From an uncultured Lachnospiraceae bacterium (lineage in GTDB: Bacteria > Bacillota > Clostridia > Lachnospirales > Lachnospiraceae), in NCBI GenBank assembly GCA_900315505.1, contig OMZG01000006.1, forward strand, positions 1-64,000: a DNA stretch of 64,000 nucleotides. Reading direction: 5' to 3'. Positions 7,461 through 59,389 of this stretch are shown one piece after another (within the stretch, counting starts at the first letter, position 1; every line of letters begins with the position of its first letter). The translations under genes and the position numbers were made by a program. The notes beneath the pieces were generated by a model. The model was not told the DNA's origin and ran no database searches. It worked only from the letters and a program-made list of their open reading frames with translations.

Positions 7461-9899
7461 ATGACATACTTTACCAGATTCTATCTGGATAACGAAAAGG
7501 ACATCGTCGTTACCCTCTACTGGGAGCTGGACGACCTATACTATTGTCTGTCGACCCCGAACCACCACACCGGCAATCTCATCAGGAATCTCGCTCGGCT
7601 TATTGATGAGCCACTGTCCGAGGATGAGAACGGTCTCCTGGTGATCAAGGGGAAGGTGCCATGCTATGTGGACGGGAATAATGAGGATGTCTGGGTCTTC
7701 CGCATGGGCAATATGAAGGTAGCGAATATCCATGCCAACGGCCGGGTGGAGCTGAAGGCGAGGATACCTGCCATTTCGAAGACTCTGATGAGTCAGACGA
7801 AGGACTACAGCACGGACCTATGGCGGACGATTTTCAAGGATTATATTCCCAGGGACTATAAGTTCCGCTCAGATCTGCATACCCATATGAATGCGAATCT
7901 GTCGGGTGATATTCTGATCGCTCTCGGAATCATCCATCAGATCAGATATCCTCTCTACTATGTGAGGAAGCTGGAGCTGGCGCTGACTCCTGCGCAGGAA
8001 GCACTGATGGCACAGAGACGTGCCAGGGTAGAGAAGCAGTTCGTGGATTCTGATCTGCAGGGCAAGTATCTTGCGAGAAAGATAAATGACAATACCTTTA
8101 TCAATTTTGCAGATCTGATCCTTCACAATCTCGATAATGCCGAGGAGAATATCGCGAAGATCCGCGCCTCACTATCAATCCTTAAGGATGGCCAGGCAGT
8201 TTTTACTAATCTCGAGAAAGTTTACCTCTACCGCTATGTCTTCTGTAAAGGAAGAGAGGCAGATGATACTTTTCGTCTTGTAAACGTAGGCCAGATTCCG
8301 GACGATGATATCAGGCATTATGTCTACCAGATGATGAAGGACAGAGAGGATAAGAGATATCATAAGAATTCTCTGTTTCAGGATCTGCTGCTGTGGATTG
8401 CAAGGACATATCAGTCGCAGGGAATAGTATATGCTGAGATCAGTGATACTACTCTTGTGAAGAAATACGAGTCCATCCATATGCTTGAAGAAGTCCATGA
8501 GGTTATGCCTGAGATCTATAAGGAGACAGGTGTGATGCTTCGTTTTCTTGCAGCTATCCGCCGAATACCACTCACGATAGTAAAGGATGCTGTGACACCT
8601 GATGACTATCTGTCCCAGAATATCGCAGCACTTAAGGGAACAGCACTGGATCCATATGTGGCAGGTGTGGACTTCGTCGGTGAAGAGATAAACGATATCA
8701 TTTCCCTGAAGCCTGTCTTCAGGGAGATTGCAAAAATAGCAGCCGATGATCCTGACTTCGTGATCAGGGTCCATGCCGGCGAAAATGACAGCCAGAAGGA
8801 AAATATAGCTCATTCCATAGAGTGTGTAAGAGATTCGCTGGCATCTGGTCAGAAAATGCCGCGTATGCGTATAGGTCATGGACTCTACACCTATTCGCTG
8901 AGCTCGCAGAAGGGACGTGAGCTGATGGAGGCAATCAGGGATTCACACATAGTTCTTGAATTCCAGATCACATCGAATGTACGACTGAATAATCTGAATT
9001 CACTTGAGAACCATCCCCTGAAGCAGTATCTCGAGGAGGGGATCATGTGTGTCCAGGGAACAGATGGAGCCGCCATCTATGGTACCTCGCCACGTGACGA
9101 GCAGCTGTCTCTTATGTACCTTCTTGGACTTGACCCTGATCAGGTCGCGTCTATGAAGCATACAGACCAGTATATTATAGACAATAGCGTGGAAGGATTC
9201 GAACGTAAGCAGAAGCGCTTTGAGAAGATAAAAGGAGACCATACAATCGAAGAGACAATCCTGTCTCATATGGGAAAGCGTCATATCGATGGCCTCTATA
9301 TCAATAAGAACCGCCATCTGGACGCTGTGACAGAACTCAAGAGCCAGATAGACGACCTGCCATGGGACAGGACACCGGTGATACTCGTCGGAGGAAGCTT
9401 CAATACAGAAAAGAGGACGACCAGGACGACGGATGAGGGAATAGCGCAGCTTCATTCGCTAATGGAAAAGCTTGACCCGTCAGAATACTTTTTCGTGATC
9501 GGACACAAGCTGAGTGGCTATGAAAAGCAGCTGGTAGATTTCAATAGGGATATGGCGGATCCATTCGATATCTATGCATTTGTGCCATCACTTCTGACAT
9601 CGAAGGAGCGCAATGCTCTGAAGGATTCAGGAGTTAACATCCGCATCTCTCCTGACCTCGAAGGAATGGGGATCTACAAGAGTGTGAATTATGAGATATA
9701 CGAGCGTCGCCCGTCGATACTTATAGCCATGGATGGCAATTCCGCCGGAGAGAATATGATCCAGGAAGCGAAGAACGGCAAGGGCAAGGCACGTATCTAC
9801 GTTTGGAAGGGTGCAAGACACCTTCTTACGAAGGCGGAATCCCTCGAGGGATATGTGAGGTTTTTTGACAGTGACAGGCCGCTTGAGTCCATGATATGA
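7461..9899 (+). CDS. Adenosine/AMP-deaminase-like amidohydrolase fused to a C-terminal LOG-like domain
   Basis: 812 aa. Has the HxH metal site (DLHTHMN), the HAGE motif and a TDGAA block in ADA order. The C-terminus (VILVGGS...SKERNALK...MDGNSAGENMIQEA) follows the LOG/PpnN pattern. Confidence 0.55.
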   Translation: MTYFTRFYLDNEKDIVVTLYWELDDLYYCLSTPNHHTGNLIRNLARLIDEPLSEDENGLLVIKGKVPCYVDGNNEDVWVFRMGNMKVANIHANGRVELKARIPAISKTLMSQTKDYSTDLWRTIFKDYIPRDYKFRSDLHTHMNANLSGDILIALGIIHQIRYPLYYVRKLELALTPAQEALMAQRRARVEKQFVDSDLQGKYLARKINDNTFINFADLILHNLDNAEENIAKIRASLSILKDGQAVFTNLEKVYLYRYVFCKGREADDTFRLVNVGQIPDDDIRHYVYQMMKDREDKRYHKNSLFQDLLLWIARTYQSQGIVYAEISDTTLVKKYESIHMLEEVHEVMPEIYKETGVMLRFLAAIRRIPLTIVKDAVTPDDYLSQNIAALKGTALDPYVAGVDFVGEEINDIISLKPVFREIAKIAADDPDFVIRVHAGENDSQKENIAHSIECVRDSLASGQKMPRMRIGHGLYTYSLSSQKGRELMEAIRDSHIVLEFQITSNVRLNNLNSLENHPLKQYLEEGIMCVQGTDGAAIYGTSPRDEQLSLMYLLGLDPDQVASMKHTDQYIIDNSVEGFERKQKRFEKIKGDHTIEETILSHMGKRHIDGLYINKNRHLDAVTELKSQIDDLPWDRTPVILVGGSFNTEKRTTRTTDEGIAQLHSLMEKLDPSEYFFVIGHKLSGYEKQLVDFNRDMADPFDIYAFVPSLLTSKERNALKDSGVNIRISPDLEGMGIYKSVNYEIYERRPSILIAMDGNSAGENMIQEAKNGKGKARIYVWKGARHLLTKAESLEGYVRFFDSDRPLESMI

Positions 9900-14569: not shown

Positions 14570-15166
14570 ATGAACAGAATTATTTTTGCAACAGGAAATA
14601 AAAACAAGGTTCGTGAATGTCATGAGATACTGAAGGACGTGGCTGACGAGATCATTTCGATGAAGGAAGCAGGACTTGATCCTGATATAGATGAGAACGG
14701 GAAGACATTTGAAAAAAATGCGATGATAAAGGCGAAGGCAGTCCATGATCTGGCACCTGACTGCATCGTGATAGCAGATGATTCAGGACTCGTGGTTGAT
14801 GCATTAAATGGTGAGCCTGGAATCTATTCTGCCAGATATCTTGGAGAAGATACCTCATATGATATCAAGAATGCAAAAATACTTGAGCGCATGCAGGGTG
14901 TCCCAAGAGAAAAGCGCACGGCGAGATTCGTCTGTGCAATGGCAGTCATCATGCCTGATGGAGATTCATTTACGAAGACAGGCGTGATGGAGGGCTATAT
15001 AGGAGACCATGCGGAGGGTGAGAACGGATTTGGCTATGATCCTATATTTTTCGTAGAGCCGCAGAACTGCTCAACTGCAGTACTGTCTCCGGATGAAAAG
15101 AATGCTATATCTCACAGGGGACAGGCGATGAGAGCGATGAGGGAAGAGCTGGTTAAGAGGATATAG
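14570..15166 (+). CDS. rdgB: Non-canonical purine NTP pyrophosphatase (RdgB/HAM1)
   Basis: MNRIIFATGNKNKVRE signature. 198 aa. Confidence 0.85.
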   Translation: MNRIIFATGNKNKVRECHEILKDVADEIISMKEAGLDPDIDENGKTFEKNAMIKAKAVHDLAPDCIVIADDSGLVVDALNGEPGIYSARYLGEDTSYDIKNAKILERMQGVPREKRTARFVCAMAVIMPDGDSFTKTGVMEGYIGDHAEGENGFGYDPIFFVEPQNCSTAVLSPDEKNAISHRGQAMRAMREELVKRI

Positions 15167-15234
15167 GATATAGGGGATAGGGGATAGGGGATAGGGGATA
15201 GGCTGTCCCTAACCCCTGACCCCTAATCCCTCAC
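15163..15234 (+). repeat. Tandem-repeat hairpin (GGGGATA)4 with a C-rich partner arm
   Basis: ATAGGATATAGGGGATAGGGGATAGGGGATAGGGGATAGG, loop CTGT, then CCCTAACCCCTGACCCCTAATCCC. Confidence 0.5.
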
Positions 15235-15247
15235 GAAGGAGACCTAT

Positions 15248-15739
15248 ATGAATGATACACTAGTCCTTGTAGTAAGCGATTCACATGGCAGGCAGGAAAA
15301 TCTCGACCGTGCCATCATACAGACGCAGCCGGATATCATCTATCACCTTGGAGATGCACAGGGGTATGAGGATGAGATCAGAGCAGAGTGCGGCGTACCA
15401 TTTTTCTATGTGAGAGGGAACTGCGACTGGGGCAGCGATGCGCCGCTGTATCAGGTGACTTCACTCGGAAAGCACAAGATTTTCCTGACCCATGGACACA
15501 TGTATGATGTGAAGTATTCGGACTATGATCTGATAGAGGCTGCACAGAAGGAAGGCTGCGATGTGGCAATATACGGGCATACGCACATACCAGAGCTTGT
15601 GCAGGCAGACGGAATGACGATCCTCAATCCCGGATCCATTTCCCTTCCACGCCAGCCGGACAGGATACCGACCTTTGCGACGATAGATGTGGACCGGGAC
15701 GGAGAGCTGCATTTTACCATAAATGAGATGAAGCCTTGA
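15248..15739 (+). CDS. YfcE/MJ0936-family metallophosphoesterase
   Basis: VVSDSHG, GDAQG, GNCD and GHTH motifs in the order typical of a calcineurin-like phosphoesterase. Confidence 0.8.
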   Translation: MNDTLVLVVSDSHGRQENLDRAIIQTQPDIIYHLGDAQGYEDEIRAECGVPFFYVRGNCDWGSDAPLYQVTSLGKHKIFLTHGHMYDVKYSDYDLIEAAQKEGCDVAIYGHTHIPELVQADGMTILNPGSISLPRQPDRIPTFATIDVDRDGELHFTINEMKP

Positions 15740-15764
15740 CAAAGAAGCCTTAAGCACATAGAAT
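15736..15764 (+). promoter_or_regulatory. Consensus sigma70 promoter for ileS
   Basis: TTGACA, a 17-nt spacer, then TAGAAT. The -35 box overlaps the yfcE stop codon. Confidence 0.5.
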
Positions 15765-15782: not shown

Positions 15783-15842
15783 AGTTCGTAGTTCTGAGTT
15801 CTGAGTTAATAGCTAAGAACTATGAACTACGAACTATGAACT
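15783..15842 (+). repeat. Tandem-repeat imperfect hairpin in the ileS leader
   Basis: (AGTTCKTAGTTCTG)n, centre TAATAGCTAA, then (AGAACTATGAACTAC)n. Confidence 0.45.
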
Positions 15843-26246: not shown

Positions 26247-27066
26247 TAGCGGAGTCCTGACGGACTGGCTTAAGAAATTCTTATCCGGCTCTCTGGACTT
26301 TTTCTGGAGCGTGGTGATCGCCCTGATCGTCTGGTTCGTTGGGGCGAAGGTCATCAGGTTCATTCGAAAGGTGGTACGTACCGCCCTTGAGAAAAGAGAT
26401 GTCGATAAGGGGGTAGCGCAGTTCACCGACGGAGTGCTGAATGTCGCCTGTTATGTGGTGCTCATCCTTATTATCTTAAATCTGTTCGGGATTCAGACCT
26501 CATCAGTCGCAGCCGCTGTGGCATCTCTCGGACTGACCGCCGGACTTGCACTGCAGGGTTCTCTGTCGAACTTCGCAGGCGGAGTACTCATACTCGTGCT
26601 GAAGCCGTTTAAGGTCGGTGATTATATCATCGAGGACACGCACAAGAACGAAGGAACGGTTGCAGAGATATCGATATTCTACACCCGCCTCCGCACGATT
26701 GATAATAAGATAGTCGTGATCCCGAACGGGACTCTCGCGAATTCATCTCTTACCAATGTGACGACATCCGATCGCAGGCAGATCGATCTGACATTCGGGA
26801 TCAGCTATGAGGATGATCTGAAGAAGGCAAAGGAGATCCTCTATCATATCGCGCAGACTACAGAGAAGCGGGTAAAGGATACAGACATCCAGGTCTTCGT
26901 GAGAGAGCTCGCAGAGTCATCGGTCAATCTCGGATTCAGGATCTGGGTACCGATGGACGACTACTGGAGCGTACTCTGGGAGATAAACGAACGGGTGAAG
27001 CTGACCTTCGATAAGGAAGGCATCACGATACCGTATAATCAGCTGGATGTGACACTTAAAAGTTGA
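26230..27066 (+). CDS. MscS-family mechanosensitive channel
   Basis: The PFKVGDYI...IPNGTLANSSLTNVT MscS core and three N-terminal TM segments. Confidence 0.85.
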   Translation: MYLAINSGVLTDWLKKFLSGSLDFFWSVVIALIVWFVGAKVIRFIRKVVRTALEKRDVDKGVAQFTDGVLNVACYVVLILIILNLFGIQTSSVAAAVASLGLTAGLALQGSLSNFAGGVLILVLKPFKVGDYIIEDTHKNEGTVAEISIFYTRLRTIDNKIVVIPNGTLANSSLTNVTTSDRRQIDLTFGISYEDDLKKAKEILYHIAQTTEKRVKDTDIQVFVRELAESSVNLGFRIWVPMDDYWSVLWEINERVKLTFDKEGITIPYNQLDVTLKS

Positions 27067-27168
27067 GAGTTGAGAGTTAAGAGTTAAGAGTTTAACGTTA
27101 GAATTTTGTTATAACTCATAACTTTAAACTCTTAACTTTAAACTCATAACTTTAAACTTACAGAGAAA
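27066..27168 (+). repeat. Tandem-repeat strand-asymmetric hairpin
   Basis: (GAGTTRA)n arm, then (AACTY/TTTAAACTC)n arm. 27086-27095 pairs perfectly with 27123-27132. Confidence 0.45.
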
Positions 27169-30121: not shown

Positions 30122-30136
30122 AGTACTAAGAGGGAA

Positions 30137-30267
30137 GAGTGGCACATGAGTTGTGAGAGACCTTTCGAAACGCCGGCGCTTGGCGGCTGTTTTTCAAGCC
30201 GCCTATGCGTCCGTTGCGTTGAGAACAGAGCGAGAGCGTGTCTCGAGCAACTGCATGTGCCACTCTG
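30137..30267. repeat. Long inverted-repeat element, copy B
   Basis: GAGTGGCACATGAGTTG...CAACTGCATGTGCCACTC encloses an inner hairpin GGCGGCTGTTTTTCAAGCCGCC. Confidence 0.4.
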
Positions 30268-30283
30268 ACCGTCAAAGGATATT

Positions 30284-34121: not shown

Positions 34122-34247
34122 GTTTATAATTTAAAGTCAGAAGTTAGAAGTTAGAAGTTTATAGTTAGAAGTTAGAAGTTTATAGTTAGAAGTTTAAAGT
34201 TAAAAGTTATCATACTCATAACTCATAACTCATAACTCATAACTCCC
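34122..34247 (+). repeat. Tandem-repeat strand-asymmetric element
   Basis: (AGAAGTTAGAAGTTTATAGTT)n, then (ATAACTC)4. Confidence 0.45.
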
Positions 34248-34265
34248 GACTTATCAGGAGACAAA

Positions 34266-42677: not shown

Positions 42678-42726
42678 ATGCTTGACTATCATCTCATGAA
42701 AAGTTAACATATTACGCAGAGTGTAC

Positions 42727-42786
42727 GAGAGCGCACGAAGGGGCACACCACCTTGGGTGTGAGTCCTTTCGTGCGCTCTTTTTTAC
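42727..42786 (+). terminator. Intrinsic terminator of eno
   Basis: GAGAGCGCACGAAGG...CCTTTCGTGCGCTCT followed by T6. Confidence 0.6.
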
Positions 42787-42789
42787 GCG

Positions 42790-42935
42790 TAATAAATGAG
42801 CGGTGCTGAAATGGAATATCGGTGCCGGCGGACGCTTGCGTACGCATAGGCGGCCGATATTCCATTTCAATAGCGCGAACGCGCGAATGAGCACGAAGCG
42901 AAGCGGAGTGCGAATCGCACCGCTCATACACTAAA
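42790..42935. repeat. Long inverted-repeat element, copy A
   Basis: ATGAGCGGTGC...GCACCGCTCAT encloses GAAATGGAATATCGG...CCGATATTCCATTTC. Shares GCCGCCTATGCGT (as reverse complement) with copy B. Confidence 0.4.
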
Positions 42936-42999
42936 AGGAGATGACCAATGCAGGAAGAGTATCGAAGAGATTCTGAAGGAAAGAGGACTTACAAAAGAG

Positions 43000-43113: not shown

Positions 43114-43197
43114 CTGGAGCGTCTAAGCATTAGCGAAAGCGTGCCTTGAGATGACTGCCTGCGAATGGCTGCCCGAAGGTACTTAGAAAGGAAAAGT

Positions 43198-43962
43198 ATG
43201 TCTGACACATTTAAACTGGGAGAAAAAGAATTTACGTCAAGATTCATTCTTGGCTCCGGAAAATATTCGGTTGACCTGATAAAGGCGGCCGTGAATGAGG
43301 CTCATGCACAGATCATTACGCTGAGCGTACGCAGGACAAATACACAGAAGCATGAGAATATCCTCGAGTATATTCCTGACAATGTGACTCTTCTTCCGAA
43401 CACCTCTGGTGCAAGGAATGCTGGGGAGGCTGTCAGGATCGCACATCTGGCCAGAGAGCTCGGATGCGGTGATTTTGTAAAAATCGAGATCATGGGAGAT
43501 ACGAAGTATCTGCTCCCTGACAATAATGAGACTATTAAGGCTACAGAGATCCTTGCAAAAGAAGGATTCACTGTACTTCCATATATGTATCCTGATCTGT
43601 ATGCAGCCAGAGCACTCCGCGATGCCGGTGCTGCAGCCGTTATGCCGCTTGCATCACCGATTGGCTCGAACAGAGGTCTTTCTACGAAGGAATTCATCCA
43701 GATCCTTATCGATGAGATTGATCTTCCGGTCATTGTAGATGCCGGAATCGGCAAGCCGTCAGAGGCTGCTGCCGCAATGGAGATGGGTGCTGCTGCCGTA
43801 ATGAGCAACACCGCCATCGCCACCTCAGAGAACATTCCTCTGATGGCAAGTGCTTTTGCAGAGGCAATAAGCGCTGGCCGTAAGGCATTCCTCGCCGGTA
43901 CCGGACGTGTGCTCGAGCGTGGTGCAGAGTCGAGTGATCCGTTGCTTGGATTTTTAAGGTAA
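43198..43962 (+). CDS. thiG: Thiazole synthase
   Basis: [12 protein letters not shown] start, then ...IMGD..LLPD and ...[19 protein letters not shown] precedes the ATG at 43198. Confidence 0.9.
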
Positions 43963-44050
43963 TAGGATATAGGATATAGGATATAGGATATAGGATATAG
44001 GGGATAGGAATTGATAAACCCTAACCCCTAACCCCTACCCCCTAACCCCT
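43963..44050 (+). repeat. Tandem-repeat hairpin (TAGGATA)5..GGGGATAGG with a (CCCTAAC)n telomere-like arm
   Basis: Same repeat family as 15163-15234. The C-rich arm is CCCTAACCCCTAACCCCTACCCCCTAACCCC. Confidence 0.5.
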
Positions 44051-44070: not shown

Positions 44071-45324
44071 ATGAAAAACCAATTTTACGTTGATGGCAAG
44101 CAGCTGAGTGGTGCTGCGCTTAAGAGAAAGCATGAGCTTGAGACTGATCCGTCCACAAGAACGGACTGTATGAAGTTCATGCCGGGTATGGACCAGATCG
44201 ATCCGACTATCAGGAATACCGTGCTTGATCAGATGAATTCATATGATTATGACAAGTACACGGATATGGATGTGCGAAGAGCGCTCAGGAAAAGAAGGAT
44301 AGATGTCGAGGATTTCAAGGCACTTCTGTCTCCGGCAGCTTTTCCACATCTGAATGAGATGGCAGAGCGGGCGAGATACGAGACTGCCAGACAGTTCGGC
44401 AATACGGTGTATATGTTTACACCGCTTTATATCGCAAACTACTGCGAGAACTACTGTATCTACTGCGGGTTCAACTGCTACAATGATATCCACAGGAAGC
44501 AGCTCGACAAGGACGAGATCCGTCACGAGATGGAGGTCATTGCAAAGACAGGCATTGAAGAAATCCTGATCCTTACCGGTGAGAGCAAAAAGAAGAGCTC
44601 CATTGAGTATATCGGTGAGGCCTGCAAGCTTGCAAAGGAATATTTCAGGAATGTAAGCCTTGAGGTCTATCCAGCCAATATAAAGGATTACAGGTACTGG
44701 CATGAATGCGGAGCCGACTATGTGACAGTTTTCCAGGAGACATATGATGCGAAAAAATATGAGACTCTGCATCTGTTAGGCCACAAGAGAATTTTCCCAT
44801 ACAGATTCGAGGCACAGGAAAGAGCAATCATGGGCGGCATGAGAGGAGTTGGCTTCTCAGCACTCCTTGGACTCTCTGATTTCAGAAAGGATGCGCTTGC
44901 AACGGGACTTCATGTATATTATCTCCAGAGAAAATATCCGTGGGTCGAGTATTCCCTGTCCTGCCCGCGTCTTCGCCCGATCATCAATAATGAGAAGATC
45001 AATCCTCTCGATGTAGGCGAGGCACAGCTGACACAGATACTGTGTGCATACAGGATCTTCCTTCCTTTTGCTGGAATAGTGGTAAGCTCCCGTGAGACAA
45101 AGCGTTTCAGAAACGGCATTGTAAAGATAGCAGCTACAAAGGTATCAGCCGGCGTATCTACCGGAATCGGCGACCATGAGGCCAAGTACACCCATACCGA
45201 GGAAGAGGGTACAGGTGACGAGCAGTTTGAGATAGCTGATACCAGATCATTTGACGATATGTATGGCGACCTCGAAGGCGAGGGAATGCAGCCTGTCACC
45301 AATGACTATGTATATGTAGGCTGA
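44071..45324 (+). CDS. thiH: 2-iminoacetate synthase (radical SAM) with acidic C-terminal extension
   Basis: CENYCIYCGF radical-SAM cysteine triad. Sits in thiS-thiG context. 417 aa. Confidence 0.8.
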   Translation: MKNQFYVDGKQLSGAALKRKHELETDPSTRTDCMKFMPGMDQIDPTIRNTVLDQMNSYDYDKYTDMDVRRALRKRRIDVEDFKALLSPAAFPHLNEMAERARYETARQFGNTVYMFTPLYIANYCENYCIYCGFNCYNDIHRKQLDKDEIRHEMEVIAKTGIEEILILTGESKKKSSIEYIGEACKLAKEYFRNVSLEVYPANIKDYRYWHECGADYVTVFQETYDAKKYETLHLLGHKRIFPYRFEAQERAIMGGMRGVGFSALLGLSDFRKDALATGLHVYYLQRKYPWVEYSLSCPRLRPIINNEKINPLDVGEAQLTQILCAYRIFLPFAGIVVSSRETKRFRNGIVKIAATKVSAGVSTGIGDHEAKYTHTEEEGTGDEQFEIADTRSFDDMYGDLEGEGMQPVTNDYVYVG

Positions 45325-50753: not shown

Positions 50754-53699
50754 TCAATAATAATGCCTCAGCTTAAGTCGCCGTCCTTTACAGAATGGGC
50801 AAGGCTCTCTATGACGTTTCTGGAACATGATTCGTTTGGCAGGAGACATTGGATAATGATGCCCTTGAGAACACTCCCACCAAACTTTTTTATTATAATT
50901 CTCATTTATCTGATCAGGGTCAGCCAGCAAGGAATTGTTCAGATACAACCATTCATCCATAAGATCAGGATGTTTGATCTTAAATGAATTAAATCCCGGA
51001 AGCACCTGTCTGCCGGTGCAGTAAGGACAGTCAGCTTCGCCCGAAACCATGTCTTTGATAGAAGCACTATAGCTACCATGACAGGTAGGACATATCCATT
51101 GAACGTATCTTGGTGAGCTGGAAAGCACATCATCAGTGGATATATCGTTCTCATCAGACCACAAGGAAGCGATTTCAGGATATTTGACTTTAAGGCTGTT
51201 AAATCCCGGAAGTACCTTTCTGTCATTGCAGTAAGGACAGTCAGCTTCGCCCGAAACCATGTCTTTGATAGAAGCACCATAAGTACCATGACAGGTAGGA
51301 CAAACCCATTTAACGTACTTTGCGGAGTCAGGAAAAACATCATCAGCAGATATGTCATTTTCATCAGACCACCAAGAAGCGATATCAGGGTACCTGACTT
51401 TAAGACTGTTGAATCCGGGTAGCACCTGTCTGTCATTACAGTAAGGACATTCAGCCTTGCCAGAGACAATATCCTGAATAGTACTGCTATATTTACCGCC
51501 ACAATCGGGACAGATCCAATAAAATCTGGATGCAGCATTGTAAGATATCTTATCTGGTTCTTTATCATTATCGGGATACCACATTGAAAGATACTGAGGA
51601 TAAACATCAGCAAAACTTTCTCCGGGTTTTACCCTGATGAGGGCACAGTATGGGCAACCCGTACGACCTTTTTTTAGTGCTATTATGATGCGGGCAGTCG
51701 AGGTCTTGTATCTTTTTTTACAAGTAGGGCAGATCCATGTCATAGGTATATATGAATCGTCGTAAGTACGTATTGAAAAAATGGTTCTGCCACTGGCCTG
51801 TTCATCACACATATCAACTAGCTGGGGATACTCCTCCGCGTACGGTATATCACGACTATGACCACTGCTGCACTTTTGACAGTCTATAAAGATAAGATCA
51901 TTTTTGTCTTTACCATAACGAAAACGACTTGCTATTGTTCCCCGCCATCTGTTACCACATTTTTTACACTTATAATTTACAATCTTTGCAGAATGAACAC
52001 CCTCGGAATAGATGTCAATATCAGGATTGTTATCAAAATCGAATAATGATGAAAATTCGGGTTTTACTGTAAGGACGTCATTTACTCCTTTTACTATTAC
52101 ATTGCCGACTTCACAGCATGGACAGTTCCTTGAAATAAGACGACTCTTAGCCGTTGCCTCCCATTCACGTCCGCAAACAGGACATTTCCAGAAAAAAGTT
52201 TCTCTGCTTCCGGCTTGTATAACACGTGGATCAATTCCGGCATTTTTTTCAAAATCCCAGAATCTGAGTAAATCTGGTATGTCGTATACTGATGCGATAC
52301 TATTATTCTTTTTCTGTTTTACAGTTGAACCTTTATTTATTCCGCAGTTGGGACATCCTGCAAATGATTTCTTTGTTTTGCCTCCGGTCATGCCAAAAAA
52401 CGTACTTTGCCACGCATATCCGCAGTGGGGACATTTCCAGTCGAACAGTGGAATCTTGGAGTTATAAGAAACTGAGTATGGATCCAGGCCGGTATTCTTA
52501 TCAAAATCATAATATTTTTTTGCCTGTGGGAATATGGTGAAAATATCATTGACACCTTTTTTTACGGAATAGTCTCTTTTTTCACCGCAATGAGGGCATC
52601 GGTCTGATGCATCAAGACGCACTGCTACACTTGTTTCCCATTCGTATCCACAGTCGGGACATTTCCAGTATACCCTTTTGCTAGAATTGGATGGGGTTTT
52701 TGCCGGATCCATTGTATTATGTTCTTTATCCCAGAATTTCATGAGCTTTGGCACTTCAGAAACCTTTTCCTTGTCTTCCGGCTTTATCTTTGAGGTATCC
52801 TTATGCTGACAGGGCATAAAGCGATATGTTCCGTCTTTTTTCTTATCAACACGTCTGCTCATTGCTTTACGGAATTTGCGACCGCACACGGGGCATTTCC
52901 AATTAACGACAGTTTTGGAGCCAACACCGATTTTCTTTATATCTATCCCTTCCGAAGCATTAGCGTCAAAGTCCCACTCGTTAAGTGCATCTGGCAGTAT
53001 GGTAGATATGTCATTGTATCCTGGTGATACACCATGTCCCTGATCACAGCATGGGCATTCTGCCTTTGCCTTGTATCTGCTATATACTGGTGCAGTCCAT
53101 TTAAAATGACATCTTTTACATTTCCAATGAACCGAAGGACGTTTCATCATGACAGATGTTGTATTGATATCTATCCCTTTATTTTCGTCGAAATCCCAGA
53201 AATCGACAAGTTTTTCTACTTCTGATATCATAGGGATATCTTGTCTTTTATGAGTACAGGAAACGAACAGATATGTTCCGTCCTTTTGCTTACGAATTCT
53301 ATTTCCAATCGCCATCCGAAACTCACGATGACAGACAGGACACTTCCAGTATGCCATCTTCTTGGAGCCTACGCCTTCATTCTCCAGGTGGATGTCTTCA
53401 ACGTCATTCTTTTCTTTGTCCCATTCATCCATAATGCCAGGTACAAGCGTAACTGCATCATTATGTCCTGACCATATGACTTTTTTCTGTTCGCAGCGGG
53501 GACACTCACCCTTTGAGATATAACGGTTATAAACCGACGCTTTCCACTCATACCCACATCTCTTACATTTCCAGGAGAGGAGTGGTTTCTGTGCAAGGGC
53601 TGATGTCATATTTATATCGATTCCTTTATTTTTCTCAAAGTTCCAGAATTTTGTAATCTTTGGAACCGATGATGCCGGAATGAATTCTTTCACTTTCAT
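50754..53699 (-). CDS. 981-aa protein of about 13 tandem four-Cys zinc-ribbon modules (DUF4379-like)
   Basis: Each module reads W(K/I)CxxC(G/H)..W...(11-14 aa)..CPxC, then a linker V.xGxND..T..P....EWD...N. The C-terminal three modules are almost identical at the DNA level. Confidence 0.7.
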   Translation of the reverse strand: MKVKEFIPASSVPKITKFWNFEKNKGIDINMTSALAQKPLLSWKCKRCGYEWKASVYNRYISKGECPRCEQKKVIWSGHNDAVTLVPGIMDEWDKEKNDVEDIHLENEGVGSKKMAYWKCPVCHREFRMAIGNRIRKQKDGTYLFVSCTHKRQDIPMISEVEKLVDFWDFDENKGIDINTTSVMMKRPSVHWKCKRCHFKWTAPVYSRYKAKAECPCCDQGHGVSPGYNDISTILPDALNEWDFDANASEGIDIKKIGVGSKTVVNWKCPVCGRKFRKAMSRRVDKKKDGTYRFMPCQHKDTSKIKPEDKEKVSEVPKLMKFWDKEHNTMDPAKTPSNSSKRVYWKCPDCGYEWETSVAVRLDASDRCPHCGEKRDYSVKKGVNDIFTIFPQAKKYYDFDKNTGLDPYSVSYNSKIPLFDWKCPHCGYAWQSTFFGMTGGKTKKSFAGCPNCGINKGSTVKQKKNNSIASVYDIPDLLRFWDFEKNAGIDPRVIQAGSRETFFWKCPVCGREWEATAKSRLISRNCPCCEVGNVIVKGVNDVLTVKPEFSSLFDFDNNPDIDIYSEGVHSAKIVNYKCKKCGNRWRGTIASRFRYGKDKNDLIFIDCQKCSSGHSRDIPYAEEYPQLVDMCDEQASGRTIFSIRTYDDSYIPMTWICPTCKKRYKTSTARIIIALKKGRTGCPYCALIRVKPGESFADVYPQYLSMWYPDNDKEPDKISYNAASRFYWICPDCGGKYSSTIQDIVSGKAECPYCNDRQVLPGFNSLKVRYPDIASWWSDENDISADDVFPDSAKYVKWVCPTCHGTYGASIKDMVSGEADCPYCNDRKVLPGFNSLKVKYPEIASLWSDENDISTDDVLSSSPRYVQWICPTCHGSYSASIKDMVSGEADCPYCTGRQVLPGFNSFKIKHPDLMDEWLYLNNSLLADPDQINENYNKKVWWECSQGHHYPMSPAKRIMFQKRHREPCPFCKGRRLKLRHYY

Positions 53700-53708
53700 A
53701 TATTACCC

Positions 53709-54464
53709 TCACTCGAATTTATCGAACAATCCCTTTACTACGTTGCTTTCGATTCCTGAAGAATCGTTTGCTGTTTCATCTTCCGTCTGAGAAGTGTCTG
53801 TACTATCATCAGACGTATCTATATCAGTATCAGGTCTTATGGCCCTGGCTTCGGCTTTTTCTGCATCAATATGTGTGGACACCGTACCTTTGAGCTCACC
53901 GTCTTCCTTTAACAGCTCATTAGCCATCTCTGGATATACATTATCTTCTATGAACTTTTTCATGTACTTATTCTTTTTACGGAGTTCGGTCAACTCTGTC
54001 TTTTGTTCTACATATTTCTGCCTGAGCTCAACGTTATCCTTTTTTATCTTATCCAGCTCGGAACTCATTTTATCGTGCTCTTCAACGAGTCTGCGGTTTT
54101 CCTGCTTTATCGTAATAGCTGACTCAGAAATATTTCTGTAATGGGTATCCAGTTCCGTCAGCGATCTTCTCATTGCATCACGGGACTGGTTGTTGTCGAT
54201 AAAGGCATCCACATCGAGCGTGGTATATGTTGTGATGTTTACCGATGCTTTTTCAATATTCCCCTTCAAAGAGGAGATATAACTCCTTGCGGCCGTATTT
54301 CTGCGAAGGGTTGTAACGGAATATCCTGTGAATCCGTTATCACTTACATACTGGGCAATCTGCGGAAACCTCAGCAGAGAGCCGTTTCCATGACACACGT
54401 CGTTATAATATTTTTTTATAAGATCAAGAAGGACGTCATCCTCGATCTGCTTTTTCCTTGCCAT
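53709..54464 (-). CDS. Coiled-coil protein with acidic Ser/Thr/Asp-rich tail
   Basis: 251 aa. Central heptad region ELDKIKKDNVELRQKYVEQKTELTELRKK. 9 nt upstream of the zinc-ribbon gene. Confidence 0.5.
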   Translation of the reverse strand: MARKKQIEDDVLLDLIKKYYNDVCHGNGSLLRFPQIAQYVSDNGFTGYSVTTLRRNTAARSYISSLKGNIEKASVNITTYTTLDVDAFIDNNQSRDAMRRSLTELDTHYRNISESAITIKQENRRLVEEHDKMSSELDKIKKDNVELRQKYVEQKTELTELRKKNKYMKKFIEDNVYPEMANELLKEDGELKGTVSTHIDAEKAEARAIRPDTDIDTSDDSTDTSQTEDETANDSSGIESNVVKGLFDKFE

Positions 54465-54502
54465 ATACCGCTCCTTTCATGACTCTCATAAGTCCCTGTC
54501 TC

Positions 54503-56179
54503 TTAACTTTCCTGTGTCTTTTTCCTGTCATACATTTTTTTCTGCATGAGATAATTTCTGTAAGACGTGGAACTTTCCTGGACTTTTAACATTGCTTCTC
54601 CTATGTCTTCAACAGCACCTTTGTCGTGCCTTACTCTGTCTACGGCTTCTACAAGAGCCGTACAGTCGTCTTTAAGATCTCTTCTGTATATATCATCACC
54701 CTCGAAGAAGGAGATTGACGGTCCTCTGTAGAACCGGCATGAAAGGCAGTAACCGATTTCACCGTTCTCGCCACATGCTTTACGGCAATCCGTTATACTG
54801 CCGCTCATATATGCACTGGAATAGCATGTGCCACCATCTGCAAGTGAAACGTGCTTTTCAGCGGGAGGAAGAAGACCCTGTACAGAGATCTGATACTTTT
54901 TATCGCTGCCTATGTATTTCCTGTATTCCCTGTATGTCTGACATTCTATCATGGTTTCAAGGTTACTGTAATAATGGGCTGCCATTTCTTCATTGGTATG
55001 CCCTGCAAGGAACATTGCCGTGGCCGGAGTGCCGCCTTCCTGCATGAGATTGATAAGTGCGACATGCCTTGCATCTCCGAGACGTATCCTCTGTATCTCC
55101 TTATCTTCCAGATGTCTTGTCTCCTCGTCTGAAATGATGCGGTATCCGTATATTCCACAAATAACCTCTGAATAAAAATATCTGAGTATCGTGACCATGT
55201 TCACATATGTGAGAAAACGGCTGTTGCTGTGTTTGCCCTGCTTCCATTTTCTGTAGTGCGGATCAGTGACAAAAAGCGTATCTATATCAGTGCTGTCATA
55301 TTTATCCGTTGCTTTCAGATATCCGTTGATCTCTTCATAAAGTTTGTCCGGTATACGAAAAGTAGTAGTAAAATAATCCGCGCTGATCTTATAGGACTTT
55401 TCACGCTTGCTGCCTTTAAGCCTGTTCCTGCGAAGCGTTATATAATGCTTTCCCTTCGCATCAGTTGAGAGACAGTCCCTTGTTGTGAGAAGGAATTCCC
55501 TCGGTCGTAGAGGTATACATCCTGTCAGGTTCCACCAGATATAAAGGGGCAGGTAGAACAGTCTGTCCTCGGTATTGAGATCATGACTCCAGTAATCGTT
55601 TATGATGTCATTAAATACAGCGTATGTATCGAAAGCTGCAAGAGATCGTGAACGCGGGCCTTTTTGCTTTGCAATCCTGGTCTCCGAACAGATATCGAGC
55701 ATATCCATAATGTCATTTGTAAAATCACCTGATGTATCAGGAAGCATGGAGAAAAAGTCTGAACACTGGGCAGGTCGTGTGAGTGTATAGCCTGCCTCTT
55801 CTGTGCCTATAGCCACCGGATCGTTGGCTGTTATATGCCTGAGATCGAGTATAACATTTTCCATTGATACAAGGGCTGTCTTACTGAAGAGCGTTGTAAT
55901 ATATGATTTAACCCTTGAAACGAATTCATCGAAGGACAGATTCAGTCCCTTGGCATAGTATTCATCATACTTTTCTCTGTCAAACGAGAAATGAAGTCCG
56001 ACATTTGAATACTCATCTGTTGTGTACCATACATCATCCTCAAATGATGAGCCTTCTTTTATGACACCGGCATCCCTGAACGCGTCAAAACGCTCCCTGG
56101 CAGCCGATACTGAAGTCTGATCAAGAAGTATGAAGTTAAGTGATGAGGAGAAAAGCTCCTCTGCCGTGGAAACATTCAT
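54503..56179 (-). CDS. Tyrosine recombinase, third of trio, with C-terminal Cys-rich extension
   Basis: Catalytic residues in order: LRPREF (R), ARHVALINLM (RH), AGHTNEEMAAHYY (H..Y). Extra Cys-rich segment CxxxxC...CxxC after the catalytic domain. Confidence 0.65.
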   Translation of the reverse strand: MNVSTAEELFSSSLNFILLDQTSVSAARERFDAFRDAGVIKEGSSFEDDVWYTTDEYSNVGLHFSFDREKYDEYYAKGLNLSFDEFVSRVKSYITTLFSKTALVSMENVILDLRHITANDPVAIGTEEAGYTLTRPAQCSDFFSMLPDTSGDFTNDIMDMLDICSETRIAKQKGPRSRSLAAFDTYAVFNDIINDYWSHDLNTEDRLFYLPLYIWWNLTGCIPLRPREFLLTTRDCLSTDAKGKHYITLRRNRLKGSKREKSYKISADYFTTTFRIPDKLYEEINGYLKATDKYDSTDIDTLFVTDPHYRKWKQGKHSNSRFLTYVNMVTILRYFYSEVICGIYGYRIISDEETRHLEDKEIQRIRLGDARHVALINLMQEGGTPATAMFLAGHTNEEMAAHYYSNLETMIECQTYREYRKYIGSDKKYQISVQGLLPPAEKHVSLADGGTCYSSAYMSGSITDCRKACGENGEIGYCLSCRFYRGPSISFFEGDDIYRRDLKDDCTALVEAVDRVRHDKGAVEDIGEAMLKVQESSTSYRNYLMQKKMYDRKKTQES

Positions 56180-58089
56180 GCGACCGCCTCCTTCAGATAA
56201 TTTTCGTACTGTTCATATGTCTTTTCACCATACTGATCCTTTATGCAGGTGAGCATCTCATCCAGTTTCGGGAGAAGTATTTCCTTTGCAATGCTACCGT
56301 ATTTCTGTTTTTCAAGCGGTGATGTGGCAGCATTATACAGCTTCTGTATGCGCTTTATTTCTGATATGACGAGAAGAAACGTCGATTTTGTGCTTATTTC
56401 ATACGGACACCCCACGCACTGCCTGCTGTCAGTGTACGGACAGATCTTTCCTATTGCTGATTTAAGGCATAGTGATTCTGCCTCTTTCGAGAAGGCCTGT
56501 CCTGAGCCTATGCGGTGCAGAGCTGTAAGTATATCGGTGTCGGAACCTGAGGCCTCTCTGACGGCCAGCACGGCTCTCTGGCGGCCTTCTTCTACAAGAG
56601 AGACGACCTCATCTGTTTCTTTCGGGGAAAGATTCAGAAGATGGTGGGCCTCCGTCTGCTCTTCAACGCTTAATGTTTTATAATCTTTCCCCTCGATCAT
56701 TTCAAGGAGCATCGACGAGACAAATGAACATACACCTCTTTCCAACAGCTCATAGGCAACGAAGTCGGGTGTAAGACCATCGAATTTTGCATCTTTCAGA
56801 TATTCCATTGTCGTATTTGCAAACTCTCCGAAACTTCCTTTGTGTGAACGGGCGAGAGAAGCAAATATATATCCTTTCACGCTTGCGGCATTGGCATCAA
56901 CGTCCCCGTCTTCCCGCAGTATCTCATCAGCGTGCATATATATGGACTGAAGATATGATTTTGTGGCGGATCTGGATCTGAAATCAGATTCAAGAAACAG
57001 GTTTCCGATATCCTCTCCCATGTATCTGGTTATCTGTTCATATGTCGAGATCTTTCTTATAATAGGAGCGTCAGGGTTGCCATCAATCTGTCTGTGGGCT
57101 TCTGCAAGGGCAAATAATATCCCGAAATGTGTCTCACATGAGTGCGGCACTGTAAATTTTACATATTCGTCATGTCCCCGTCCTGATGTCTTGTTTACCG
57201 TAAGAGGTAAAAGGCATAGCCTCTGTGTGATGGAACGCAGAACACTCTGTGCGTCGTCGTCCGTAAACTCTCCGTTGCGTACTTTCCGCAATACTTCATC
57301 CGGTGGATATGGAAGATCGGGATGATATATCCGTTCAAGATCGGTCAGCCGCAGGGAGCAGATGAAGTTGATCGACAGATAAAGCCATGTATCCGTATAG
57401 TCTGTTGAATCAGCAGCTTTTGCATACATGTCGTTTTCTTCGATATAGTCCTCATTCAGCAGATAGTAGAGCAGTTCCAGATATTCATCCATTTCATAGG
57501 CTTCGTTCTGGATATCCATAGTGTATCGGTTTCCCATGACATAATCACGATTGTAATTTGTCTTCGTTCTCTGCCTGAGCCAGGAGATAAAGAAAGTGAG
57601 ATCATCTCCGAATGCCTTTGTGAGTTCATCCGCTGCTGCTTTCACAATGCTTTCCATATCAGTATCTGTATAGAACATCATCTCCCTGTCAAGATGGTAC
57701 AGGAGAAAATCGGTGATATACATTACCGATTCATCAGGAAGCTCTACGGCCTTTGCAAATTCTTCAAGATAGCGGGCAGTAGAGGGAAAACGTACAGACA
57801 GATCTCCTGAAAGAGTATCTTCGCTGAAATCCGATGATAAAAATGATGACAGATTATCCTTCAGCAGTTCTGCATCATCTTCGGATAAGGTAAAACCGCC
57901 ATCTGCATTACCGTCTTTTACCGGCTTTATCCCAAACCATCCGTTGCTTTCAAGAAAGAGCACGGTATCGTCCATTGATTTGTTATATGGATTGCTGCCG
58001 TTTAATGCCTCCGTTACGATCTTATTAAGGCTTTCCATCACCATGCCCCCTTTCGGCTGCCCACATATGATAGTCGAACAGCTCATCAT
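56176..58089 (-). CDS. Putative divergent tyrosine recombinase (Tn554 TnpB-like size), second of trio
   Basis: 637 aa. Overlaps neighbours by 4 nt and 65 nt. Candidate box-I SLRLTDLE and ARSHKGS..EY. The assignment is weak. Confidence 0.4.
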   Translation of the reverse strand: MMSCSTIICGQPKGGMVMESLNKIVTEALNGSNPYNKSMDDTVLFLESNGWFGIKPVKDGNADGGFTLSEDDAELLKDNLSSFLSSDFSEDTLSGDLSVRFPSTARYLEEFAKAVELPDESVMYITDFLLYHLDREMMFYTDTDMESIVKAAADELTKAFGDDLTFFISWLRQRTKTNYNRDYVMGNRYTMDIQNEAYEMDEYLELLYYLLNEDYIEENDMYAKAADSTDYTDTWLYLSINFICSLRLTDLERIYHPDLPYPPDEVLRKVRNGEFTDDDAQSVLRSITQRLCLLPLTVNKTSGRGHDEYVKFTVPHSCETHFGILFALAEAHRQIDGNPDAPIIRKISTYEQITRYMGEDIGNLFLESDFRSRSATKSYLQSIYMHADEILREDGDVDANAASVKGYIFASLARSHKGSFGEFANTTMEYLKDAKFDGLTPDFVAYELLERGVCSFVSSMLLEMIEGKDYKTLSVEEQTEAHHLLNLSPKETDEVVSLVEEGRQRAVLAVREASGSDTDILTALHRIGSGQAFSKEAESLCLKSAIGKICPYTDSRQCVGCPYEISTKSTFLLVISEIKRIQKLYNAATSPLEKQKYGSIAKEILLPKLDEMLTCIKDQYGEKTYEQYENYLKEAVA

Positions 58090-59389
58090 TTATCTTTGTA
58101 TATTTTCTTTCAAGCTCTCCCTTGTTTTTCAGGTATGTGAGCGAGCTGTCAGGCGAAGTGTCTCCCCTGAAATGCATGAGTGTTCCGATATCGGTAATGC
58201 CTGAAAGAACGAGCTGTACCGTGAACCAGTGTCTGAAAATATGTGGTGATATGTTATGCTCCAGTAGTATTTTCCCATATGTGACAAGTTCAGGATCATC
58301 ACTGGATAGATAGAGCGGTATCATTTCGTCTTTTATGATGTCCTGAAAACGCTGATAATATGACTTGTATGTCATCGCCATGTGTCTGCTATTGACTGTG
58401 AACGGGCCATAATCGGTCTCATATGGTATGTTGTTCATGTATTCGATGTAGATATTATATGCCTTTATAAAAGCATCACGGAAGATGTCAGGTATATCCT
58501 GCATACGCTCTTTCTTGATCTTTCCGACAGGGACGGCATCGCTCCTGAGATTGTATTCATGATTGAGATCGATACGGATCTTTGTGACTGTCAAACACTT
58601 GGTATAGCCGGTTTCGATACAGTCGATGAGAATTCCTGGTCCTAACGGACTGTCCGTGCGGCGTACATTACAGGCTTCAGACGGACGAAGACCGCAGAAT
58701 GCCGAGAGTATCACAAGTCCGAGCATGTCCTTGTGATGCTGGAGGATATGGTCGAAAAGAAGCCTAAAAGCCTTGTCCGGCATATCCCTGAATATGGCAT
58801 GGGTGCTTCCTGTATATTTCACATCAAAGACGGGAACCTGTGTATCTATGACCTTTCCATGCTTGTCACGCTTCTTGACTGTCCTGTACAGATCTTTCAC
58901 CCTGATGCTGCACCTGGTCTTTCTGTCTTCTATCAGGAGCTGTAGAAAGTCCAGAACAGATGATACGGCTCTCTCGACAGTGGCTTTGGCGCGGGATGTA
59001 TCATCGTCGTCATCAGGAAGAGTGCAGGTGCCGTAAGCATTGAGATAATCTTTTACGATATCGACTGTGAGCTTGTCAAGAGACCTGATCCCGCGTTCAA
59101 AAAATGCATAGTTAAGTAAAGGTGTGACAAATGCAAATCTGCTGTTGCCATCATCCTGTATGCTGCGTACTTTTGAATGGGTTGATCTCACATATTTGTG
59201 AAAATCTGTGAATCTGATGGTTCCGTCACTGTATTCGAGGACTATGAACTGTCGCGGTATTATAAGGTTATCCGATGTAACGTAATGGTGTTTATAAACC
59301 TTGAACCTTACCGGTACAGGCGTATCAGATATGGATATGCTGCCAGTTGTATCCATAAGCGTCTCCTCTCCGGGAGGCGGATGTATCAT
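58025..59389 (-). CDS. Tyrosine recombinase/integrase, first of trio
   Basis: GLRPSEACNV (box I Arg), HIFRHWF (HxxRH) and LTYL (Tyr). RBS AAAGGA. Confidence 0.7.
   Translation of the reverse strand: MIHPPPGEETLMDTTGSISISDTPVPVRFKVYKHHYVTSDNLIIPRQFIVLEYSDGTIRFTDFHKYVRSTHSKVRSIQDDGNSRFAFVTPLLNYAFFERGIRSLDKLTVDIVKDYLNAYGTCTLPDDDDDTSRAKATVERAVSSVLDFLQLLIEDRKTRCSIRVKDLYRTVKKRDKHGKVIDTQVPVFDVKYTGSTHAIFRDMPDKAFRLLFDHILQHHKDMLGLVILSAFCGLRPSEACNVRRTDSPLGPGILIDCIETGYTKCLTVTKIRIDLNHEYNLRSDAVPVGKIKKERMQDIPDIFRDAFIKAYNIYIEYMNNIPYETDYGPFTVNSRHMAMTYKSYYQRFQDIIKDEMIPLYLSSDDPELVTYGKILLEHNISPHIFRHWFTVQLVLSGITDIGTLMHFRGDTSPDSSLTYLKNKGELERKYTKINDELFDYHMWAAERGHGDGKP

Follow-up and report, generated by a model that had tools for sequence, protein, structure and literature searches.

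Facing heptanucleotide arrays at the thiG-thiH junction of a rumen Lachnospiraceae bacterium, probably one copy of a dispersed and hypervariable quasi-palindrome family

What kind of sequence separates thiG from thiH in a 64,000-nucleotide stretch of Lachnospiraceae DNA (contig OMZG01000006.1, positions 1 to 64,000, here called the window), and is its likeness to a telomeric repeat meaningful? The window belongs to a metagenome-assembled genome (MAG) of the Weimeria clade from the rumen. Its ThiH is 100% identical to that of MAG SUG1701 and 89-93% identical to the ThiH of Candidatus Weimeria, to which the source species is sister. Five heptamer elements of the window, labeled A to E, were studied, and element E (43963-44049) is the one in the thiG-thiH spacer. 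Element E belongs to a described class of intergenic heptanucleotide simple sequence repeats (SSRs), with all the defining features of the class except the exact unit consensus. We hold, with moderate confidence, that it is one copy of a lineage-wide, hypervariable family of quasi-palindromes with heptanucleotide-repeat arms, which would change by slippage combined with inverted copying or dispersal and would be near-neutral to the host.

Element E consists of a purine-rich left arm, a short loop and a C-rich right arm (Table 1). The upstream gene encodes ThiG, preceded by ThiS, and the downstream gene encodes a ThiH-like radical SAM/BATS protein. The left arm carries a TAG every 7 nt together with motifs (AGGA) resembling a Shine-Dalgarno (SD) sequence. 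The right arm reads on the - strand as TAGGGGT-type units with a (GGGG N3)x4 G-quadruplex (G4) motif, and is followed by TCTAAATACAAAGGATACAAA and then by the thiH ATG. Tandem Repeats Finder (TRF) assigned period 7 to both arms, with 6.9 copies at 43962-44009 and 5.1 copies at 44015-44050. The (TAGGATA)5 run and the CCCTAAC arm of a preliminary description, which had been made from the letters of the window alone, are thus confirmed by the sequence and by TRF. Three features had escaped that description, namely the complementarity of the two arms, which gives a bulged hairpin, the presence of three further palindromes with other units, and the known SSR class. When GGGGATA is paired with TAACCCC, six of the seven positions pair, and the A.A mismatch generates a 1x1 internal loop every 7 nt.

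The spacer containing element E recurs unchanged in four assemblies made independently from other samples (L003, L007, L009 and L010; L numbers denote the compared genomes, contigs and loci). Thus, element E is not an assembly artefact. It is internal to the operon on contigs of up to 324 kb in at least ten assemblies. The preliminary description had likened the right arm to eukaryotic telomeric repeats; the two have in common one strand with a G-run plus T/A, and G4 potential at the motif level. The sole support for an origin from a telomere or a eukaryote, or for an artefact, is that (CCCTAAC)n complements (GTTAGGG)n, similar to G-rich telomeric repeats. However, bacterial operon genes flank the element on both sides, its 7-mer unit is paired with a complementary GGGGATA array, the arm has 4-5 units and is not a canonical telomerase product, and the sister elements use unrelated units. 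The likeness, a G-run plus TTA, is superficial, and such an origin is hardly credible.

A scan of the window for tandem periods of 4-12 nt showed arrays at period 7 only. There are seven such arrays at five loci, all of them paired, and all five loci lie between genes on the + strand. Element A lies between Ham1-like and Metallophos_2 genes, with the TAG stop of the upstream open reading frame (ORF) at 15164-15166 within its first units, and element C lies between MscS-like and peptidase M16 genes, with the upstream TGA at 27064-27066 within its left arm. Element D is located between glyS and a DUF218 gene, 10 nt after the upstream stop, and element B is in the ileS leader, ~40 nt past the upstream stop and just after a promoter-like site at 15736-15764. 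Each arm, read 5' to 3' on its own strand, carries the same core as its partner (AGGG/TAGG in A and E, hereafter G-type; AGTT in B, C and D, hereafter AGTT-type) followed by 2-3 variable bases. All five elements are convergent, the common core being carried by the left arm on the top strand and by the right arm on the bottom strand; in the G-type elements, each strand's array runs towards the centre as 5'-(T)AGGG(G)NN-3'. As a result of this arrangement, a single strand can fold into helices of ~6 bp with one mismatch per 7 nt.

Comparison of elements A and E showed that the core they have in common, which the preliminary description had already noticed, is far beyond chance. The 16-mer GGATATAGGGGATAGG has exact copies at 15166 and 43993, and with up to two mismatches it has ten matches in the window, all within A and E, against 0.05 expected. 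The right-arm pattern CCCTAACCCCTNACCCCT has seven matches against 0.00 expected, and an alignment of the two loci gave a mean column identity of 80%. The motif (G3+ N1-7)x4, which served as the G4 test, picked out three canonical G4 motifs in the window, two in element A (15173-15197 on the + strand and 15207-15230 on the - strand) and one in element E (44025-44049 on the - strand). The G4-forming character ascribed earlier to element E therefore stands as the presence of a motif, as a motif-level possibility that extends to two of the five heptamer elements; the other three (B, C and D) are without G-runs.

The positions of the genes at elements A, B and C allowed some side observations. In both A and C the first heptamers contain the end of the upstream ORF. 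A stop returns at 7-nt intervals in all three frames, so that 7-nt insertions and deletions alter at most the last residues; for example, the upstream ORF ends in K-R-I-stop in the window and in N-R-I-stop in L094. The promoter-like site before element B (TTGACA-17-TAGAAT, 11/12, near-consensus) overlaps the end of the Metallophos_2 gene, is kept in the 84%-identical relative L212 and would put element B at the very start of the ileS leader. The sequence upstream of ileS showed no T-box.

Table 1. Coordinates of element E with its flanking signals and of elements A-D in the window, and allele series of the pgk-tpiA spacer in related contigs
Feature	Position in the window or spacer length	Strand	Sequence or remark
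thiG stop TAA	43960-43962	+	abuts the first heptamer; ORF 43165-43962, PF05690 ThiG
Element E, left (5') arm, purine-rich	43963-44008	+	TAGGATA x5, TAGGGGA, TAGG
Left-arm sub-block TAGGATA x5	43963-43997	+
Left-arm sub-block TAGGGGA	43998-44004	+
Left-arm sub-block TAGG	44005-44008	+
Element E, loop	44009-44018	+	AATTGATAAA, 10 nt; omitted from the preliminary description
Element E, right (3') arm, C-rich	44019-44049	+	CCCTAAC CCCTAAC CCCTACC CCCTAAC CCC (x4.4)
thiH Shine-Dalgarno and start codon	44060-44073	+	AAGGATA, ATG at 44071; outside the predicted stem
Element A, G-type	15158-15234	+	(AGGATAT)2(AGGGGAT)4AGG, loop CTGT, CCCTAAC CCCTGAC CCCTAAT CCCTCAC
Element B, AGTT-type	15783-15842	+	AGTTCGT AGTTCTG AGTTCTG AGTT, loop AATAG, CTAAGAA CTATGAA CTACGAA CTATGAA CT
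Element C, AGTT-type	27056-27159	+	AGAGTTG/AGAGTTA paired with ATAACTC/TAAACTT units
Element D, AGTT-type	34134-34252	+	~11 AAGTTAG-like units, TCATAAC x5, outer stem
pgk-tpiA, outgroup (86% Pgk identity)	15 nt		TAATTAAAGGAGATTATTATG, no element
pgk-tpiA, L163, L227, L228 (99.3-99.9% identical)	117, 100, 93 nt		G-type; unit numbers and loop differ
pgk-tpiA, L236	92 nt		G-type element and loop (GGGACTGCCTGGTCCC) of L163; flanking DNA only 87% identical
pgk-tpiA, L237, L238, L240	122, 108, 129 nt (7-nt steps)		(AGAGGTG/AGAGGTT)n-(CACACCT/CAGACCT)n palindrome
pgk-tpiA, third lineage L229-L235	143 nt		unrelated non-heptamer insert

Copies of the G-type core outside the window were sought in metagenomes with the pattern GGGGATAGG-N3-25-CCTAACCCC. 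The scan returned at least 120 stretches, many of which are chance hairpins, and only the lag-7-periodic matches were used. Two groups stand out among them. The first comprises paired G-rich heptamer arrays in unrelated soil and marine bacteria. The second comprises gut and rumen (Weimeria-clade) contigs that carry the core of A and E (AGGATAT-AGGGGAT-AGGG, a short loop, then CCCTAAC-CCCT...) at other junctions, namely pgk-tpiA (L163), two cobW-like junctions on the same 90-kb contig (L111a and L111b), L186, which also has AGTT-type arrays, and L151/L174. A minimal hairpin with one unit per arm is present in L110/L175. In the copies on the related contigs (L163, L111, L186, L151 and L110), the stop is located at or inside the left edge and an SD sequence follows the right arm. 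The copies amount to two G-type and three AGTT-type elements in the 64 kb of the window and to three G-type elements on one 90-kb contig. The ortholog of locus A in a species 80-84% identical in DNA (L212) keeps element A with different unit numbers, and element B is absent there.

Since the G-type core recurs at other gene junctions in related contigs, as well as at the L212 ortholog of locus A, the dispersed repeat family proposed in the preliminary description is supported. A species-specific phenomenon, considered as a candidate, was wrong because relatives carry G-type elements at other junctions. No element was found in the thiG-thiH spacer of four Weimeria relatives or of more distant Lachnospiraceae, and its absence from the four relatives indicates that element E is dispensable. 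Lack of conservation in orthologous spacers had been named beforehand as an observation that would tell against a family; it holds for the thiG-thiH spacer in these four relatives, but the family is still real. Among 79 other genomes (1.26 Mb), period-7 arrays of at least three copies are rare, with the exception of L081 (Ruminococcus sp. RUG10851, an unrelated rumen MAG). This genome has several heptamer arrays (1902-2128 and 9074-9199) before start codons, among them a purine-rich array separated by ~70 nt from an inverted pyrimidine-rich one immediately ahead of a start codon. The arrays of L081 place the heptamer phenomenon in at least two families of rumen Clostridia.

A recurrent core at unrelated junctions could also reflect a non-autonomous mobile element of the repetitive extragenic palindrome (REP)/REPIN or miniature inverted-repeat transposable element (MITE) type. 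In that case a trans-acting transposase, such as a Y1 enzyme resembling the REP-associated tyrosine transposase (RAYT), would carry a small GGGGATAGG-loop-CCTAACCCC hairpin to stop-SD junctions, and slippage would only decorate the arms afterwards. The many junctions with the same core, including the minimal L110/L175 copy and the three copies on one 90-kb contig, agree with such an element, as do the constant orientation (the GGGGATA arm is upstream at eight distinct loci, A, E, L163, L111a, L111b, L186, L151/L174 and L110/L175) and the empty alleles, which resemble precise excisions. Short AAGG(A)-type direct repeats also flank several copies (TAAGG...TAAGGAG in L237; AGGATA...AGGATA at thiG-thiH). 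However, these flanking repeats are confounded, because downstream genes need an SD sequence and the unit itself contains AGGA, and they were rejected as target-site duplications since they are inseparable from the SD sequence that every downstream gene requires. At their left ends 12 copies show TAAGGAT/TAGGATA, and at their right ends CCCTTAC/CCCTCAC; neither termini nor loops are conserved, and a GTAG/CGTC tag is absent. A different unit type at the same pgk-tpiA site, in register with the stop heptamer TAAGGTT, looks locally seeded. Among the Pfam-called genes beside the copies, in the few kb inspected, no transposase was present, and viral contigs are without copies. A phage vector was likewise rejected, the five exact 16-mer matches in viral contigs being chance matches in coding DNA with no arrays. 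A mobile element is therefore a possible but unlikely source of element E.

Comparisons between strains showed that the elements vary in steps of the unit length. The thiG-thiH spacers of contigs encoding an identical ThiH protein, counted from anchors in the last thiG codons to the thiH ATG, are 96, 103, 110 and 120 nt long. Their alleles contain two to five TAGGATA units, one or two GGGGATA units and 2.4 to 4.4 right-arm units, and they have three different loops, AATTGATAAA being replaced by ATTAAA or by ATCAGGTAACAGATTGTTGTT. In L011, the representative genome in GTDB (4.7% diverged), only (TAGGATA)4 is left, fused directly to the thiH SD sequence. Strains 2.2% apart differ in element A by two 7-nt deletions in the left arm and a third in the right arm, all separate events, which change the ratio of GGGGATA to right-arm units from 4:4 to 3:3 between alleles. 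Element D is absent or vestigial in L001 and L002 and is 21 nt shorter in L003 and L007 (0.05-0.4% diverged), where this is one of two gaps in 13 kb. Overall, differences in 7-nt steps are seen at the E, A, D and pgk-tpiA loci between strains 0.05-2.4% apart. Changes in the two arms are semi-independent, and the arms often differ in unit number (7 vs. 4.4 units in E, 11 vs. 5 in D); the loop and even the unit sequence are replaceable between strains ~1-2% apart.

The pgk-tpiA spacer provides a further allele series (Table 1); L163 and Candidatus Weimeria sp. HCP3S3_B5 share 94% identity in Pgk. L237, L238 and L240 are 99.0% identical to L236 and encode the same Pgk protein, yet they carry a different type of palindrome. 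Counted in the 7-nt register from the stop TAAGGTT, AGG is kept in all left units and CCT in the right units, making the left arm SD-like and the right arm anti-SD-like. Both arms of one site can be remodelled together very quickly. As a separate observation in Weimeria relatives, the pgk-tpiA spacers of L229-L235 and the thiG-thiH spacer of L013 contain another small dispersed insert at the stop-SD junction. It has no heptamer periodicity and is built of ~45-nt units (TTNATGAG..AGCG..AGCG..CGA.TTTAGTG), two copies of which are present in the 143-nt spacer.

In the explanation that we favour, heptamer units would be gained and lost through replication slippage. The second arm would arise or be renewed by inverted (template-switch or fold-back) copying, by conversion from other copies, or by dispersal or transposition of a small GGGGATAGG/CCTAACCCC hairpin. 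The periodic mismatches would persist because palindromes that are both long and perfect are unstable and not tolerated. Element E is assumed to be co-transcribed in the thiS-thiG-thiH message as an intercistronic stem-loop. It would be near-neutral and would at most modulate the stability of an mRNA segment or the translation of thiH, in the manner of a REP.

Several observations weigh against this explanation or limit it. Slippage acting purely at each locus leaves unaccounted both the same core and right arm at many unrelated junctions and the joint change of unit type in both arms within 1% divergence. Because the core recurs and the two arms switch together, some dispersal, conversion or templated copying seems to be needed. 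Elements B and C, the best-paired ones, show no change across the strains sampled, and element A survives ~16% nucleotide divergence, so that some copies may be under constraint. The predicted fold of element E is no better than that of shuffled sequence (z = +0.6 sense, -0.7 antisense), and co-transcription and any role at the RNA level are assumptions.

A more specific variant supposes that the quasi-palindromes are written by a templated process aimed at stop-SD junctions, and that the arms serve as translational insulators between cistrons. The writing would proceed by fold-back or strand-switch copying with 7-nt realignment, or by an enzyme shared patchily among rumen Clostridia, cyanobacteria, xanthomonads and Beggiatoaceae, and both arms would be rewritten within less than 1% divergence. 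SD-like and anti-SD-like arms together with stops in all frames would then insulate the cistrons. We regard this variant as distinctly improbable and retain near-neutral slippage with inverted copying or dispersal as the working explanation.

The predicted folds of elements B (z = -9.8) and C (z = -5.2) far surpass those of shuffled sequence, and that of element A (z = -2.5) does so modestly. The difference in minimum free energy between the sense and antisense strands of 15 elements ranges from -6 to +14 kcal/mol with no consistent bias, for which reason RNA-level selection through G.U wobbles was dropped. As neither strand is consistently preferred, a DNA-level explanation of the palindrome is as good as an RNA-level one. 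A terminator scan showed no terminator-like site overlapping element E or elements A-D, which have no U-tract and whose stems are followed by the SD sequence; other spacers of the window hold ordinary terminators. A promoter scan gave only weak promoter-like matches (9/12) inside the AT-rich arrays, besides the strong one upstream of element B. A search of Rfam at the gathering threshold recovered six tRNAs only and no family for the element, and at E<=1 the element gave only a 23-bit match to a plant microRNA, which is noise. The density of stop codons in the elements is 2-3 times that in other spacers, and the stops are dense in all three sense frames. A strand-specific stop-codon signal was ruled out, the antisense stop density being equally high in C and D.

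These results bear on the proposal of a selected cis-regulatory RNA stem-loop and/or G4 (or a G4 or i-motif in DNA), with unit number as a tuning knob, which would tune thiH translation, shield the thiG/thiH mRNA from exonucleases or insulate the cistrons. The exact stop-to-SD position, the inferred transcription with the operon, and the location of all three G4 motifs of the window in A and E are consistent with it, and the related Xanthomonas repeats are transcribed and form G4 in vitro. The rough tracking of right-arm count by GGGGATA count in element A, seen also in element E of L001 (2.4:2.4), the stops in the three sense frames and the constancy of B and C point the same way. However, sister species lack the element in the orthologous spacer, L011 retains just one arm, the two arms of a copy often differ greatly in unit number, and the fold of element E does not exceed that of shuffles. 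The sense RNA has no consistent advantage over the antisense, the antisense stop density of C and D is also high, and three of the five window elements are without G-runs. Selection for a cis-regulatory structure is accordingly judged unlikely. If element E acts at all, the most plausible modes would be a REP-like intercistronic stem-loop or a G4 on the complement of the C-rich arm.

The regular spacing of the units might alternatively mark a multivalent array for a protein that reads a motif at 7-nt intervals on single-stranded RNA, such as a HutP-like protein on UAG-N4 repeats, CsrA on GGA motifs, or ribosomal protein S1 or the 30S anti-SD. HutP reads UAG triplets spaced by 4 nt. In A and E, UAG triplets stand at 7-nt intervals along the left arm and along the antisense strand of the right arm, several alleles combine SD-like left units (AGGA, GAGGTG) with anti-SD-like right units (CACCTC), and a binding protein has been speculated for the Nostoc heptamers and the TAACTGA repeats. 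However, the units differ by locus, those of the AGTTCTG, AGAGTTA and AAGTTAG kinds having no UAG or GGA at a fixed position, and base pairing is predicted for much of the array. Near-identical strains differ freely in copy number and even in unit type, and no candidate protein was identified. A binding array is thus very improbable.

Among known repeats, element E most closely resembles the heptameric SSRs described for Xanthomonas (GGGAATC) and for Nostoc PCC 7120 (GGGGA(C/T)T) (Rehm et al. 2015, PMC4692102). The GGGAATC SSRs number 183-186 copies per Xanthomonas genome, with 70-75 convergent pairs able to form a stem-loop, and the repeats are ~90% intergenic, mostly between aligned ORFs near the upstream stop, have 2-26 units and are hypervariable between close relatives (PMC4692102). 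They form G4 in vitro and are transcribed, with no known function (PMC4692102); a Nostoc preprint only speculates on the function of the heptamers. The elements of the window share with this class the head-to-tail 7-nt units in at least two copies and, in A and E, a tract of three or four Gs with G4 potential (here at the motif level). They also share the non-coding location between co-oriented ORFs near the upstream stop (A, C and E; 10 nt away in D), the polymorphism of unit number between close relatives, and the convergent pairs. In the small sample available here, the related copies and four of the five window elements, the exception being B in the ileS leader, fill the stop-to-SD junction, and pairing is seen in all five. 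In contrast to that class, the units here are GGGGATA/GGGGTTA and TAGGATA, which do not match the consensus GGGNATC or GGGGA(C/T)T although they are related in form (a G-run followed by A/T, T and N). The host belongs to the Bacillota (Lachnospiraceae) rather than to the proteobacteria or cyanobacteria, the same genome has AT-rich AGTT-type palindromes, and relatives have palindromes of the AGAGGTG type. A literature search for heptamer repeats in Lachnospiraceae and Clostridia (Bacillota) found no report.

Other repeat systems share part of these features. Heptamers were described as the dominant class of long SSRs, with polymerase slippage as the proposed cause, by Mrazek (2007), as cited in PMC4692102 and PMC4679880. 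The cyanobacterial short tandemly repeated repetitive (STRR) sequences and long SSRs are, like the elements here, tandem heptanucleotides over-represented in the non-coding DNA of particular lineages. The STRR1 unit, CCCCAGT, is GGGGACT on the other strand and close to GGGGATA. STRRs and long SSRs are described mainly from heterocystous cyanobacteria, Burkholderia, Xanthomonas and actinobacteria, as direct arrays that stand singly, and palindromic pairing does not define them. TAACTGA direct repeats occur patchily in marine Beggiatoaceae, cyanobacteria and some Bacteroidetes (MacGregor 2015, PMC4679880); the arrays stand in operon spacers, a few nt before the start codon, and show 7-nt insertions or deletions between close strains; a role in binding a translational regulator has been proposed but not shown (PMC4679880). 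On the other strand (TAACTGA)n reads (AGTTATC)n, close to the AGTTATG, AGTTAAG and AGTTCTG units of B-D. Unlike the elements here, the TAACTGA sets are almost always direct (169 direct vs. one indirect), and one unit dominates per genome (PMC4679880).

The REPs of proteobacteria are 20-40 bp long, have a conserved GTAG or CGTC tag and are associated with a RAYT transposase (PMC3733652, PMC3116915). The elements resemble REPs, bacterial interspersed mosaic elements (BIMEs) and REPINs in being dispersed, strain-variable, imperfect extragenic palindromes, often between co-transcribed genes, with dispensable copies and the ability to act as mRNA stem-loops. They differ in having tandem-heptamer arms of variable number, no tag and no transposase known here.

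Several further features of the window were observed. No thiamine pyrophosphate riboswitch was detected upstream of thiS-thiG-thiH in the eno-thiS spacer (42678-42964). This spacer contains a terminator-like hairpin and a long near-perfect hairpin at ~42797-42926, which has a sub-threshold match to Clostridiales-1 RNA (26 bits vs. a gathering score of 48), and its segment 42785-42952 is missing in L002-type strains. For the thiamine operon itself, nothing suggests that element E matters. Between peptidase M16 and the next gene, positions 30122-30283 form a very stable hairpin (-80.7 kcal/mol over 162 nt). BLAST located a second copy of 30143-30259 in the L001-type strain loci, which span another region, indicating another dispersed repeat. 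On the - strand, a five-gene block of lower GC content (0.42-0.44) follows nrdD at 50754-59389. It encodes a 981-aa DUF4379 zinc-ribbon protein with a 210-nt tandem repeat at 50989-51455, then proteins of 251, 558, 637 and 454 aa without a Pfam match. L001/L002-type strains have nrdG-like and other genes after nrdD instead, and the block looks like a strain-specific island.

Repeats of 7 nt in the spacers of scattered lineages, often in facing pairs, have gone unexplained since the STRR reports of 1990 and the SSR survey of 2007, and the present elements extend the phenomenon to gut and rumen Bacillota. The heptamer loci are hypervariable strain markers and break-points in the assembly of MAGs. 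Candidatus Weimeria sp. HCP3S3_B5 (GCA_052064335.1) appears to be the genome of a cultured strain and has the pgk-tpiA element, which would make slippage rates and effects on expression measurable. The metagenomic strain series provides a natural time course, from the empty site through the single array and the balanced palindromes to the replacement of one unit type by another between 99%-identical strains.

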